From a virus (taxonomy: Duplodnaviria > Heunggongvirae > Uroviricota > Caudoviricetes), in the IMG/VR virus record IMGVR_UViG_2718218452_000012: 64,000 bases of DNA; one strand, written 5' to 3'. Made by a program: the position numbers. Below, in pieces: positions 57,301 through 63,300 of the stretch (position 1 is the first letter of the stretch; every line of letters starts with the position of its first letter).

Positions 57301-60300
57301 GATATTTTCACAGCTATTTCAGGAGTTCGGCCATGAACGCTTATTACATTCAGGATCGTCTTGAGGCTCAGAGCTGGGCGCGTCACTACCAGCAGATAGC
57401 CCGTGAAGAGAAAGAGGCAGAACTGGCAGACGACATGGAAAAAGGCCTGCCCCAGCACCTGTTTGAATCGCTATGCATCGATCATTTGCAACGCCACGGG
57501 GCCAGCAAAAAAGCCATTACCCGTGCGTTTGATGACGATGTTGAGTTTCAGGAGCGCATGGCAGAACACATCCGGTACATGGTTGAAACAATTGCTCACC
57601 ATCCAGGTTGATATTGATTCAGAGGTATAAAACGGATGAGTACAGCACTCGCAACGCTGGCAGGGAAGCTGGCTGAACGTGTCGGCATGGATTCTGTCGA
57701 CCCACAGGAACTGATCACCACTCTTCGCCAGACGGCATTTAAAGGCGATGCCAGCGATGCGCAGTTCATCGCATTGTTGATCGTCGCCAACCAGTACGGC
57801 CTTAATCCGTGGACGAAAGAAATTTACGCCTTCCCTGATAAGCAGAACGGCATCGTTCCGGTGGTGGGCGTTGATGGCTGGTCCCGCATCATCAATGAAA
57901 ACCAGCAGTTTGATGGCATGGACTTTGAGCAGGACAATGAATCCTGTACATGCCGGATTTACCGCAAGGACCGTAATCATCCGATCTGCGTTACCGAATG
58001 GATGGATGAATGCCGCCGCGAACCATTCAAAACCCGCGAAGGCAGAGAAATCACGGGGCCGTGGCAGTCGCATCCTAAACGGATGTTACGGCATAAAGCT
58101 ATGATTCAGTGTGCCCGTCTGGCCTTCGGATTTGCTGGTATCTATGACAAGGATGAAGCCGAGCGCATTGTCGAAAATACCGCATACACTGCAGAACGCC
58201 AGCCGGAACGCGACATCACTCCGGTAAACGATGAAACCATGCAGGAGATTAACACTCTGCTGATCGCCCTGGATAAAACATGGGATGACGACTTATTGCC
58301 GCTCTGTTCCCAGATATTTCGCCGCGACATTCGCGCATCGTCAGAACTGACACAGGCCGAAGCAGTGAAAGCTCTTGGATTCCTGAAACAGAAAGCCGCA
58401 GAGCAGAAGGTGGCAGCATGACACCGGACATTATCCTGCAGCGTACCGGGATCGACGTGAGAGCTGTCGAACAGGGGGATGATGCGTGGCACAAATTACG
58501 GCTCGGTGTCATCACAGCGTCAGAAGTTCATAATGTAATAGCAAAACCCCGCTCCGGAAAAAAGTGGCCTGACATGAAAATGTCCTACTTCCACACCCTG
58601 CTTGCTGAGGTTTGCACCGGTGTGGCTCCGGAAGTTAACGCTAAAGCGCTGGCCTGGGGAAAACAGTACGAAAACGACGCCAGAGCCCTGTTTGAGTTTA
58701 CTTCCGGCGTGAATGTTACTGAATCCCCGATCATCTATCGCGACGAAAGTATGCGCACCGCCTGCTCTCCGGATGGTTTATGCAGTGACGGCAACGGCCT
58801 TGAACTGAAATGCCCGTTTACCTCCCGGGATTTCATGAAATTCCGGCTCGGTGGTTTCGAGGCCATAAAATCGGCTTACATGGCCCAGGTGCAGTACAGC
58901 ATGTGGGTGACACGAAAAGATGCCTGGTACTTTGCCAACTATGACCCGCGTATGAAGCGTGAAGGACTGCATTATGTCGTGATTGAGCGGAATGAAAAGT
59001 ACATGGCGAGTTTTGACGAGATGGTGCCGGAGTTCATCGAAAAAATGGACGAGGCACTGGCTGAAATTGGTTTTGTATTTGGGGAGCAATGGCGATGACG
59101 CATCCTCACGATAATATCCGGGTAGGCGCGATCACTTTCGTCTACTCCGTTACAAAGCGAGGCTGGGTATTTCCCGGCCTTTCTGTTATCAGAAATCCAC
59201 TGAAAGCACAGCGGCTGGCTGAGAAGATAAATAATAAACGGGAGGCGGTATGCACAAAGCATCTCCTGTTGAGTTAAGAACGAGTATTGAGATGGCACAT
59301 AGCCTTGCTCAAATTGGAGTCAGGTTTGTGCCAATACCAGTAGAAACAGACGAAGAATTTCATACGTTAGCCACATCCCTTTCACAAAAGCTGGAAATGA
59401 TGGTGGCGAAAGCAGAAGCAGATGAAAGAGACCAGGTATGACAACCACTGAATGCATTTTTCTGGCAGCGGGCTTCATATTCTGTGTGCTTATGCTTGCC
59501 GACATGGGGCTTGTTCAGTGACACCTCAGCAGGAAAACGCCCTTCGCAGCATTGCCCGTCAGGCTAATTCTGAAATCAAAAAAGCCAGACAGCAGTTTCC
59601 GGATAAAAACGTCGATGACATTTGCCGTAGCGTACTGAAGAAGCACCGCGAAACGGTAACGCTGATGGGATTCACACCGACTCATTTAAGCCTGGCAATC
59701 GGCATGTTAAACGGCGTTTTTAAGGAACGGTGAACATGAAAAGCAAAATCATCAGGGAGCTACAGGCTCCTTTTTTATTATTCGCATTTACCCTCAAGCG
59801 TATTAACCAACAATTCAGGGATTAATGAAAGATGGCGGACATCATTGATTCAGCATCAGAAATTGAAGAATTACAGCGCAATACAGCAATAAAAATGCGT
59901 CGTCTGAACTACCAGACTATATCCGCCACTCATTGTTGTGAGTGTGGCGATCCCATAGATGAACGAAGACGCCTGGTCGTTCAGGGTTGTCGGACTTGTG
60001 CAAGTTGCCAGGAGGATCTGGAACTTATCAGTAAACAGAGAGGTTCGAAGTGAGCGAAATTAACTAGAAGCCAAAGATAAAATCATCGCTGAGCAGGAGA
60101 AAATCGCTAACGGAGAAAAGACAGTAAGTCAGTATATGAAAACCGCATGATATCATCAGATAAAAATCGATCGTAAAGCGAAATATTAATACCAGAATAA
60201 ACGAGTCGAGGTAAATTATATTACCTCGATAAGTTAACTAAAACTTGCCCGCTATATACTATCTCATTCAGTATCATCACGCGCGGTCTGTGCATATGTT

Positions 60301-63300
60301 ACTACCGCACCTAATGTATTAATTTTCTTTTCAACATAGATAATATTATCGTACTCATAATTGCCATACGGATAGCAAATGCGAATATTCTCATGTAGAT
60401 CGGGGTCATCCACCTCAGCTCCAGAACAACTTTTTGAACTACCGGAAGTATACCGATACGGTGCAACATAAGACGATGTCTCTCCAGGCAAAAAATAAGT
60501 TAGTGTTGTAAGGGGTATAATCAGAAAAAATCCAGCAAATATGCACATCCCTGCATAAACCTTAAGGTATGCTGACAGACTCTTCCAGCCGCTTTGTTTT
60601 ACTATCCCCTTCTTAACCCAAAACAGAGATAACAGAAAAGCTATTCCCATGCTAAACAGAATGTAATAGTGGGATATACTCTGATTAAGAAACGTGACCC
60701 TGTAAATATCTGCCCGCCACCAGAAGAAAAGGAAAATAAAGATCAGGCCTGAAACTGTCATGCAAATCAAATAAGGATACGAATCTTTTTTCATGTTTAG
60801 CGTCCATAAAATTTTTCCTGCCCCGGACAAATTTACCATCCATTTTTTGCGCAGAAAATAGCTCATTACTTACTGCACAATAATACACAAAATTGCGTAA
60901 ATTTTTTGCATGGATTTTAGCTCTTTCAGCCGACGTTTAAGGGGTAAATAGCATTTCCTAAAAGCAACTGCACCAACCCAACAGAATGAGCTACCGCTTA
61001 CGTTGAGAGCAAAAAAGTGTATAGCAGCAATGAACAGCATCCTCGCACTGACGAGGATTTCTTTTATCTGAACTCGCTACGGCGGGTTTTGTTTTATGGA
61101 GATGATAAATGCACTTCCGAGTCACAGGTGAATGGAATGGAGAACCATTCAACAGAGTTATCGAAGCAGAGAACATCAATGACTGCTATGACCACTGGAT
61201 GATATGGGCGCAGATAGCACATGCAGACATAACCAATATTCGAATTGAAGAACTGAAAGAACACCAAGCCGCCTGATGGCGGCTTTTTCTTGCGTGTAAT
61301 TGCGGAGACTTTGCGATGTACTTGACACTTCAGGAGTGGAACGCACGCCAGCGACGCCCAAGAAGCCTTGAAACAGTTCGTCGATGGGTGCGCGAATGCA
61401 GGATATTCCCTCCTCCGGTTAAGGATGGAAGAGAGTATCTGTTCCACGAATCAGCGGTAAAGGTTGACTTAAATCGACCAGTAACAGGTAGCCTTTTGAA
61501 GAGGATCAGAAATGGGAAGAAGGCGAAGTCATGAGCGCCGGGATTTACCCCCTAACCTTTATATAAGAAACAATGGATATTACTGCTACAGGGACCCAAG
61601 GACGGGTAAAGAGTTTGGTTTAGGCCGAGACAGGAGGATAGCAATCACTGAAGCAATACAGGCCAATATTGAGTTATTTTCAGGACACAAACACAAGCCT
61701 CTGACAGCGAGAATCAACAGTGATAATTCTGTTACGTTACATTCATGGCTTGATCGCTACGAAAAAATCCTCGCCAGCAGAGGAATCAAGCAGAAGACAC
61801 TCATAAATTACATGAGCAAAATTAAAGCAATAAGGAGGGGGCTGCCTGATGCTCCACTTGAAGACATCACCACAAAAGAAATTGCGGCAATGCTCAATGG
61901 ATACATAGACGAGGGCAAGGCGGCGTCAGCCAAGTTAATCAGATCAACACTGAGCGATGCATTCCGAGAGGCAATAGCTGAAGGCCATATAACAACAAAC
62001 CCGGTCGCTGCCACTCGCGCAGCAAAATCAGAGGTAAGGAGATCAAGACTTACGGCTGACGAATACCTGAAAATTTATCAAGCAGCAGAATCATCACCAT
62101 GTTGGCTCAGACTTGCAATGGAACTGGCTGTTGTTACCGGGCAGCGAGTTGGTGATTTATGCGAAATGAAGTGGTCTGATATCGTAGATGGATATCTTTA
62201 TGTCGAACAAAGCAAAACAGGCGTAAAAATTGCCATCCCTACAACATTGCATGTTGATGCTCTCGGGATATCAATGAAGGAAACACTTGATAAATGCAAA
62301 GAGATTCTTGGCGGAGAAACCATAATTGCATCTACTCGTCGTGAACCGCTTTCATCCGGCACAGTATCAAGGTATTTTATGCGCGCACGAAAAGCATCAG
62401 GTCTTTCCTTCGAAGGGGATCCGCCTACCTTTCACGAGTTGCGCAGTTTGTCTGCAAGACTCTATGAGAAGCAGATAAGCGATAAGTTTGCTCAACATCT
62501 TCTCGGACATAAGTCGGACACCATGGCATCACAGTATCGTGATGACAGAGGCAGGGAGTGGGACAAAATTGAAATCAAATAATGATTTTATTTTGACTGA
62601 TAGTGACCTGTTCGTTGCAACAAATTGATAAGCAATGTTTTTTTATAATGCCAACTTAGTATAAAAAAGCAGGCTTCAACGGATTCATTTTTCTATTTCA
62701 TAGCCCGGAGCAACCTGTGAACACATTTTCAGTTTCCCGTCTGGCGCTGGCATTGGCTTTTGGCGTGACGCTGACCGCCTGTAGCTCAACACCACCCGAT
62801 CAACGTCCTTCTGATCAAACCGCGCCTGGTACCTCTTCTCGCCCGATTCTGTCGGCAAAAGAAGCGCAGAATTTCGATGCTCAACACTATTTTGCATCCC
62901 TGACACCAGGTGCTGCAGCGTGGAATCCTTCCCCGATTACCCTGCCTGCGCAACCTGACTTTGTTGTCGGCCCGGCGGGTACTCAAGGTGTAACGCATAC
63001 CACGATTCAGGCGGCGGTAGATGCGGCAATTATCAAGCGCACTAACAAGCGCCAGTATATTGCCGTGATGCCTGGTGAGTATCAGGGAACGGTGTATGTC
63101 CCTGCTGCTCCGGGTGGAATTACTCTGTACGGTACAGGTGAAAAACCGATTGATGTGAAGATTGGGCTTTCCCTTGATGGGGGCATGAGCCCTGCCGACT
63201 GGCGTCACGACGTCAACCCGCGCGGCAAATATATGCCAGGTAAACCAGCGTGGTATATGTACGATAGCTGCCAGAGCAAACGCAGCGACAGTATCGGTGT

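Follow-up and report, generated by a model that had tools for sequence, protein, structure and literature searches.

Why does a lambdoid prophage carry an AT-rich membrane-protein gene on the strand opposite to its early-left operon? The gene in question lies in IMG/VR virus record IMGVR_UViG_2718218452_000012 (Caudoviricetes), of which a stretch of 64,000 nucleotides (nt), hereafter the window, was analyzed. Coordinates throughout are positions in this window, and the calls were made from sequence and models. The prophage occupies the end of the window and is integrated at the lambda attachment site (attB) beside ybhC (62717 onward). An earlier reading of the DNA, referred to here as the first-pass annotation, had noted a moron-like protein of 176 amino acids (aa) at this locus and had pointed to the superinfection-exclusion membrane proteins often found in such positions. 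The gene is already in the databases through phage 434, as a hypothetical membrane protein, and its family is catalogued but not characterized.

Our reading, put forward tentatively, is that the gene is a moron expressed in the lysogen, that its product acts at the envelope, and that superinfection exclusion at the step of DNA entry is its most likely function. Exclusion was ranked first because relatives of the gene reside repeatedly in a defense hotspot of P2-like prophages and because the protein is predicted to be located in the envelope.

A conserved gene with a 176-aa product

Read mechanically, the open reading frame (ORF) on the minus strand encodes 200 aa (60264-60866). The first-pass annotation had given it as a 176-aa ORF on the opposite strand (60264-60794), and this call proved to be right, because all of the 20 aligned homologues, down to 42% identity, start at the Met of 60794 (MKKDSYPYL...) and because the frame upstream of this Met is shut by a stop codon in the closest homologue, which is carried by an Escherichia coli P2-like prophage (L016/L014). 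Two in-frame ATG codons farther up (60866 and 60839) precede the predicted transcription start near 60823, which agrees with the shorter reading. As judged from these alignments, the start is fixed at 60794 by family conservation together with a conserved extended -10 element, and the in-frame extension upstream of it probably consists of promoter and untranslated 5' leader. Database entries differ in length: RefSeq and phage mEp332 give 200 aa, the 434 record gives 188 aa from a TTG start and many records give 112 aa. By the same comparison all three are mis-starts. Without its spurious N-terminal extension, the product of CPT_434_36 in phage 434 is identical to the window protein (100% over the shared part). 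The 112-aa "truncated" form, which appears in more than 1,000 contigs, was considered as a variant in its own right and rejected as a start-codon miscall, since the 176-aa frame is intact in those loci.

The ratio of nonsynonymous to synonymous substitution rates (dN/dS), computed by the Nei-Gojobori method against homologues of 58-78% identity, was 0.08-0.14 over the whole gene and lowest in the part encoding the C-terminal domain (0.076-0.083). On this evidence the ORF is a functional protein-coding gene under strong purifying selection and no chance ORF. These values bear directly on the idea that the ORF is a functionless passenger or a decaying gene, for which one could cite the disagreement over the start codon, with calls of 200, 188, 176 and 112 aa, and the lack of a known domain. 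With dN/dS at about 0.1, cysteines and motifs that are invariant across members of 23-86% identity, an intact ORF in the copies annotated as 112 aa and a conserved promoter element, such a passenger has very little probability left and is, by the selection analysis, effectively refuted.

Three transmembrane helices and a predicted periplasmic barrel

Kyte-Doolittle hydropathy resolved three hydrophobic segments in the protein. AlphaFold, run on the family alignment, placed helices at residues 5-29, 38-61 and 70-101, followed by five beta-strands, with a mean predicted local distance difference test (pLDDT) score of 87; the C-terminal domain modelled alone formed a five-strand barrel with a pLDDT of 91.9. 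The first-pass annotation had proposed four transmembrane (TM) helices, and the topology prediction reduced these to three. It had also called the C-terminal domain rich in Cys and Tyr. The description holds for tyrosine (9 of 74 residues) and fails for cysteine, of which the domain has two, both invariant.

The charges are distributed unevenly. The N-terminus (MKKDS) ahead of TM helix 1 is predicted to be cytoplasmic, as is the Lys-rich loop between TM helices 2 and 3, which has five K/R and no D/E (+5). The short loop before TM helix 2 is predicted to be periplasmic and carries the conserved motif IYRxTFL, and the C-terminal domain has 6 K/R against 12 D/E, a net charge of -6. By the positive-inside rule, the N-terminus and loop 2 would be cytoplasmic while loop 1 and the C-terminal domain would face the periplasm, so that the predicted topology is N-in with the C-terminal barrel in the periplasm.

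Conservation within the protein is highest in this domain. Across 24 diverse sequences of the domain, Cys123 and Cys140 were the only invariant residues, and both lie at the base of a beta-hairpin. The flanking of the hairpin by this pair suggests a periplasmic disulfide, which would be made by DsbA and would staple the hairpin. Besides the cysteines, the near-invariant motifs are IYRxTFL in loop 1, CSGAxV, IxICxPxGxY and EK(R/K)SNxLG. The TM helices, the positive-inside rule, the acidic barrel and the invariant cysteines together predict an envelope location with a part exposed to the periplasm, as in exclusion proteins.

Searches for known families returned little. The 176-aa protein had no match in Pfam, NCBIfam or PADLOC, and the only hit in PHROGs was phrog_1416 (function not known), which covers the C-terminal half. 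A sequence search of the PDB found nothing and a fold search of BFVD gave no match at E <= 0.001. Structurally, the barrel showed weak resemblance to DUF1093 (3npp), BcR97A (2k5q) and YhhM/DUF2500 (3q6c), none of them a convincing fold match; all three are small beta-barrel proteins of unknown function, and BcR97A alone is described as membrane-associated.

Pore-forming colicin immunity proteins are similar in size to small polytopic inner-membrane proteins such as this one. The protein could be imagined as an orphan immunity protein that protects the lysogen by binding, at the periplasmic face, a toxin acting on the membrane or in the periplasm, such as a pore-forming colicin or microcin, a contact-dependent inhibition (CDI) effector or a type VI secretion system (T6SS) effector. 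The gene is solitary and dispersed over islets and mobile elements, a pattern often seen for orphan immunity genes. To our knowledge, however, colicin immunity proteins do not have a folded periplasmic domain of 74 aa. No toxin gene adjoined the gene in about 20 contexts examined, and no immunity family of Pfam or NCBIfam was matched. We consider this explanation improbable.

A self-contained cassette in the exo-xis region

The gene travels with its flanks. A 775-bp segment comprising the upstream region, the gene and a downstream hairpin (60157-60931) matched part of an E. coli P2-like prophage (L014) at 75.7% DNA identity, the match running from 137 bp upstream of the ATG to about 107 bp beyond the stop codon. 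Within the upstream part, TG.TAA.TT was invariant at five loci, including that of a Salmonella homologue of 58% identity, and stood 35-40 nt upstream of the ATG. Elements reading TAAGTT or TAAATT occur equally far from the ATG in the chromosomal copies of Cedecea and Klebsiella. This candidate extended -10 element is preceded, at a spacer of 17 bp, by a weak -35-like hexamer whose TTTT is invariant in the upstream alignment, and from their position transcription is predicted to start near 60823. Downstream of the gene, the terminator-like hairpin has a weak U-tract and is weakly conserved in the P2-like copies.

About 50-77 bp ahead of the predicted start there are direct repeats with a period of 10 bp, related to ATTGTGCA, both in the window and in P2-like prophages (L006, L014). 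In the window the promoter-proximal copy alone is intact, and P2-like prophages have three good copies. No known regulator site was recognized in these repeats. The 434 record marks part of the stretch as a CII consensus site. A CII-activated promoter was rejected: the pattern TTGY-N6-TTGY occurs in the window at chance frequency (16 found, 17.4 expected), its spacing does not suit the conserved -10 element and an alternative -10 is not conserved, and the P2-like hosts of the cassette are without CII. By inspection, a LexA box was also rejected, the repeats reading CTG-N10-CAC instead of CAG.

The 434 annotation places a second, 56-aa ORF on the same strand upstream of the gene (CPT_434_35, "putative membrane protein"). 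It had no match in the family libraries, only its last 20 or so codons fall inside the conserved cassette, its ATG lies within a terminator hairpin, and it is absent from the annotation of an O157:H7 genome by the Prokaryotic Genome Annotation Pipeline (PGAP). By these comparisons the 56-aa ORF is probably spurious and not a gene. As an operon partner it was rejected, not being conserved along with the cassette.

The surrounding genes gam, bet, exo, orf60a, orf63, a TraR/DksA zinc-finger gene, orf55, xis and int are all on the plus strand, with transcription from PL running from left to right. The membrane-protein ORF is on the minus strand, with the zinc-finger gene on one side and orf55 on the other. 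Since bet, exo, xis and int all lie on the plus strand, it runs against PL, as the first-pass annotation had stated. When the window was compared with lambda by blastn, homology at 97% identity extended to 60065 and returned at 61039; the zinc-finger gene and the orf55-xis-int neighbors are 97% identical to lambda. The intervening 973-bp segment therefore replaces lambda ea22 (after about five codons) and ea8.5, in line with the earlier call that the gene occupies the place of these two. This slot is named the exo-xis region (PMC10789677). It lies to the right of int-xis, and the placement in the lambda b region by the first-pass annotation had to be corrected. The right border of the substitution is formed by two tandem hairpins that are common to lambda, the first of which is t-L4 in the old 434 record.

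The AT-richness noted at first pass is borne out by composition. GC content is 38.8% in the ORF and about 38% (37-39%) in the substituted segment as a whole, against 46-48% in the flanks, and GC at third codon positions (GC3) is 37% in the ORF against 58% in exo and bet. A moron in the sense of Hendrix and Juhala is an independent promoter-gene-terminator unit that has been inserted into a phage operon. Two traits of such units are seen here, namely a position between genes that neighbor each other in related phages and a composition unlike that of the surrounding genes. The deviant composition, the candidate promoter element and terminator-like hairpin of the gene, and the recurrence of the 775-bp unit in an unrelated phage family make the interpretation as a moron-type element, a foreign promoter-gene-hairpin unit set between lambda neighbors, well supported by comparison, and the label "moron-like" was thus apt. 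Homology to a lambda accessory protein, which would have spoken for a non-defense role, was not found by blastn against lambda across 60066-61038, by tblastn of 50,697 phage records or as an Ead_Ea22 match in Pfam.

Homologues in P2-like prophages and enterobacterial chromosomes

The protein is 100% identical in 434 (CPT_434_36), 99.5% in 2B8 and 98.5% in mEp332, where the gene has the same position and orientation, and tblastn against the 50,697 phage records gave matches only in these three. The cassette was present in 906 of 5,426 complete E. coli genomes (17%), including the O157:H7 prophage at ybhC (WP_000120056.1). When 1.84 billion representatives were searched exhaustively with an HMMER profile, 61 members were found at the 50% identity level; the sole multi-domain match (P0124, 3,074 aa) was discarded as a repeat-protein artefact, and a second, word-index search with a profile of the C-terminal domain found no other architecture. 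When one genome per species was searched, matches were confined to the Enterobacteriaceae, plus one contaminant contig. The latter is a 3.5-kb contig (JARKOR010000073.1) of a Candidatus Nanosynbacter (Saccharibacteria) metagenome-assembled genome with a 99%-identical copy of the gene, almost certainly a binning contaminant.

In P2-like prophages, homologues were found between gpQ (portal) and gpA (replication); their identity was 78% and 52% in E. coli, 70% and 58% in Salmonella, and 55% in Klebsiella michiganensis. The closer E. coli variant (78%) is present in more than 1,000 contigs. The gpA-gpQ locus is an experimentally established anti-phage hotspot that in P2 itself holds old and tin (Rousset et al. 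2022, PMC9122126). Table S5B of that study lists, as system 4, a single gene with no Pfam match, described as "3 TM" and with 470 occurrences. Its product and the window protein align over 168 residues with 52% identity (E 3e-57). Another paper confirms the hotspot and has no data on this gene (PMC13586616), and the genome announcement of 434 annotates the gene and says nothing more (PMC9119081).

No conserved neighbor or partner gene was found in the approximately 20 contexts examined; the gene stands alone. The Klebsiella P2-like copy adjoins a gene for a 790-aa protein with a weak AAA_16 match, possibly a defense gene. In one E. coli P2-like prophage an ORF of the Ead/Ea22 family (L016, 5477-5812, minus strand) adjoins the cassette, and partition genes of the StbB and ParM-like types come next. 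Ea22-type genes thus adjoin the cassette in both phage families, although homology to lambda ea22 was not seen at the DNA level.

Outside phages, members of 34-45% identity occur in two settings: at syntenic chromosomal positions, away from phage genes, in at least six species of Enterobacter, and as solitary copies in islets of Klebsiella, Cedecea, Citrobacter and Pseudescherichia. P2 core genes were near none of them. In a neighbor-joining tree the phage-borne copies all fell into one clade, which also holds copies from Citrobacter, Cedecea and E. hormaechei and is nested in a wider, largely chromosomal radiation. Within it the window copy and the E. coli P2-like copy form a sister pair.

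This distribution is also what would be expected if the gene were a lysogenic-conversion or envelope-fitness factor, that is, a captured, vertically inherited Enterobacter inner-membrane protein that modulates an envelope process through its periplasmic domain, be it transport, stress sensing, or cell-wall or outer-membrane homeostasis. Besides the syntenic orthologues and the nesting of the mobile clade, such a role would account for a periplasmic domain under purifying and not diversifying selection; the prophage also has LpxR-like and sialate-esterase-like morons of the conversion type, and cargo of the P2 hotspot is not all defensive. Yet the mobile copies have come to rest repeatedly in one P2 locus that is enriched for defense, and no domain or neighbor points to a physiological pathway. 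We regard a role of this kind as possible but doubtful.

Proposed function

Being a self-contained unit that opposes the early-left operon, the cassette is expected to be on in the lysogen, where PL is repressed and the gene would be transcribed from its own candidate extended -10 promoter; during lytic growth, antiterminated transcription from PL would pass antisense through the gene and dampen it. The protein would be placed in the inner membrane of the lysogen, where its conserved periplasmic face, formed by the barrel and the IYRxTFL loop, may bind a conserved envelope component or the ejection machinery of an incoming phage. Entry of the superinfecting genome would thereby be blocked, amounting to superinfection exclusion by a single gene. 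The unit has, on this reading, moved between P2-like and lambdoid phages and settled here in place of ea22 and ea8.5. A host component is favored over a fast-evolving phage protein as the target, since the periplasmic domain is strongly conserved and orthologues exist on chromosomes. Stated most specifically, a captured enterobacterial inner-membrane protein would serve as a hitherto unrecognized single-gene exclusion system whose disulfide-stapled barrel, resembling an oligonucleotide/oligosaccharide-binding (OB) fold, blocks a conserved host component that several phages need for DNA delivery. We regard this specific version as possible but doubtful.

Several observations weigh against exclusion. 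From classical genetics, lambda plates on 434 lysogens, and lambda itself is therefore unlikely to be the target. The syntenic Enterobacter orthologues without phage context and the islet genes of Klebsiella, Cedecea, Citrobacter and Pseudescherichia fit a host envelope function as well as they fit defense. Similarity to an exclusion or defense family was not found in PHROGs, PADLOC, Pfam or NCBIfam. Cargo unrelated to defense also occurs in the P2 hotspot itself, partition systems and cytolethal distending toxin being examples (PMC9122126), and an antiviral role is predicted for only 15-32% of the P2 proteins whose function is unknown (PMC13586616). The system 4 sequence is absent from the table of tested systems in Rousset et al., so that system 4 appears to have been catalogued and not assayed. 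Finally, the promoter, the transcription start, the topology and the disulfide are predictions.

Transmembrane proteins are common effectors in the defense systems of these hotspots (PMC9122126), which raises the question of whether the product could be a membrane-disrupting abortive-infection effector or a holin-like toxin, by which an infected cell would be killed or arrested. The gene is single, with no sensor partner in the contexts examined, and its candidate promoter is probably of a constitutive type (extended -10). The predicted periplasmic domain is big, folded, probably disulfide-bearing and acidic, not the short charged cytoplasmic tail of such proteins. The gene also lies outside the lysis cassette, Q and the late region being at about 44.8 kb, far from the exo-xis region, and it is stable in 17% of complete E. 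coli genomes. A toxin of this sort is accordingly very improbable.

If exclusion is the true function, a role would be assigned to an orphan family that is present in the model phage 434 and in about 17% of complete E. coli genomes, O157:H7 included, and that ranks among the commonest P2 hotspot cargoes, fourth among those catalogued. It would also supply a small tool consisting of one gene, together with a new periplasmic fold, with which to study how phage DNA crosses the inner membrane. Were the protein instead an envelope-fitness factor, it would still be a clear example of a single host gene that was captured and then passed back and forth between two temperate phage families unrelated to each other. 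For the databases, the start codon is to be corrected in the 200, 188 and 112 aa calls, and the 56-aa "membrane protein" ORF of 434 is probably no gene.

Features of the locus and of the remaining prophage

The features discussed above are collected in Table 1.

Table 1. Positions of the membrane-protein gene, its cassette and neighboring features in the window
Feature	Coordinates	Strand	Basis
Gene for the 176-aa membrane protein (coding sequence with stop codon)	60264..60794	-	ORF, family alignment, dN/dS
Predicted TM helix 1 (residues 5-29)	60708..60782	-	Hydropathy, charge counts, AlphaFold
Predicted TM helix 2 (residues 38-61)	60612..60683	-	Hydropathy, AlphaFold, family alignment
Predicted TM helix 3 (residues 70-101)	60492..60587	-	Hydropathy, AlphaFold
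Predicted periplasmic C-terminal domain (residues 103-176), 74 aa, five-strand OB-like beta-barrel	60267..60488	-	
In-frame upstream extension, probably non-coding	60795..60866	-	Not conserved as protein; frame closed in L016/L014; overlaps conserved promoter elements
Cassette (upstream region, gene, hairpin), 775 bp	60157..60931	-	blastn against L014
Candidate extended -10 element, TGgTAAATT	60830..60838	-	Upstream alignment
Weak -35-like hexamer, TTTTCT, 17-bp spacer to -10	60853..60858	-	Read from sequence
Three 10-bp direct repeats related to ATTGTGCAGT	60872..60901	-	Upstream alignment
Terminator-like hairpin 3' of the stop codon	60206..60229	-	Scan match; fold -19.9 kcal/mol, z -3.0
56-aa ORF, CPT_434_35 "putative membrane protein" in 434, probably spurious	60870..61040	-	434 annotation
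Substitution relative to lambda, 973 bp	60066..61038	.	blastn against lambda and lambda annotation
Two tandem intrinsic-terminator hairpins, PL direction	61039..61089	+	Fold z -3.35
TraR/DksA zinc-finger gene	59832-60053	+	
int	61512-62582	+	

Phage 434 has about 420 bp more than the window prophage between orf55 and xis (ORF114; 434 positions 3090-3509). The junction is marked by a stretch of about 21 bp (window 61268-61288) with the terminator hairpin AAGCCGCC...GGCGGCTT, and in 434 this stretch stands on both sides of the additional DNA.

Farther to the left, an ORF of 293 aa (55471-56352, plus strand) lies between the repressor gene and gam in the most AT-rich part of the early-left operon (GC 0.30-0.34). 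It matched PHROG 12139 and nothing in Pfam or PADLOC, and its last 20 residues matched a Nun-like termination-factor PHROG (E 7e-5). This may be a further accessory or exclusion-type gene. An insertion sequence (IS) transposase gene (rve, HTH_21; 52465-53352, plus strand) is present in the immunity region, where it has the O/P replication genes (50091-51688, minus strand) on one side and an S24/helix-turn-helix (HTH) repressor gene (53766-54398) on the other. The prophage may be crippled. A gene for an LpxR-like outer-membrane lipid A deacylase (45983-46942, plus strand) adjoins Q (44818-45591), and a DUF1737/SASA sialate-O-acetylesterase-like gene is found at 41914-43287 (plus strand); the two are typical morons of the conversion type.

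Comparison with known systems

The nearest known counterpart is CPT_434_36 of phage 434 (UMO75300.1, OL657226), which is the same gene. It differs in that its product is given in the databases as 200 or 188 aa or as fragmented products, and in that 434 carries ORF114. System 4 of Rousset et al. (2022) has the same architecture of three TM helices and a C-terminal domain and is likewise single-gene cargo of temperate phages, but belongs to another phage family and another locus.

With the exclusion proteins SieA of P22, Imm and Sp of T4, gp15 of HK97, Sie2009 of lactococcal phages and Cor of phi80 and N15, the protein shares the character of a small phage-encoded envelope accessory protein that can, it appears, be expressed from a prophage. 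In Sp and Cor, too, the active part is a domain that faces the periplasm. None of the six has sequence similarity to the window protein, no exclusion family being returned by PHROGs, Pfam or PADLOC, and no fold match was seen in BFVD or the PDB.

Lambda ea22 and ea8.5 occupy the corresponding slot, with the zinc-finger gene on one side and orf55-xis on the other. They have no sequence relationship to the gene, belong to the PL operon on the opposite strand and encode soluble proteins, which affect the decision between lysis and lysogeny (PMC10789677).

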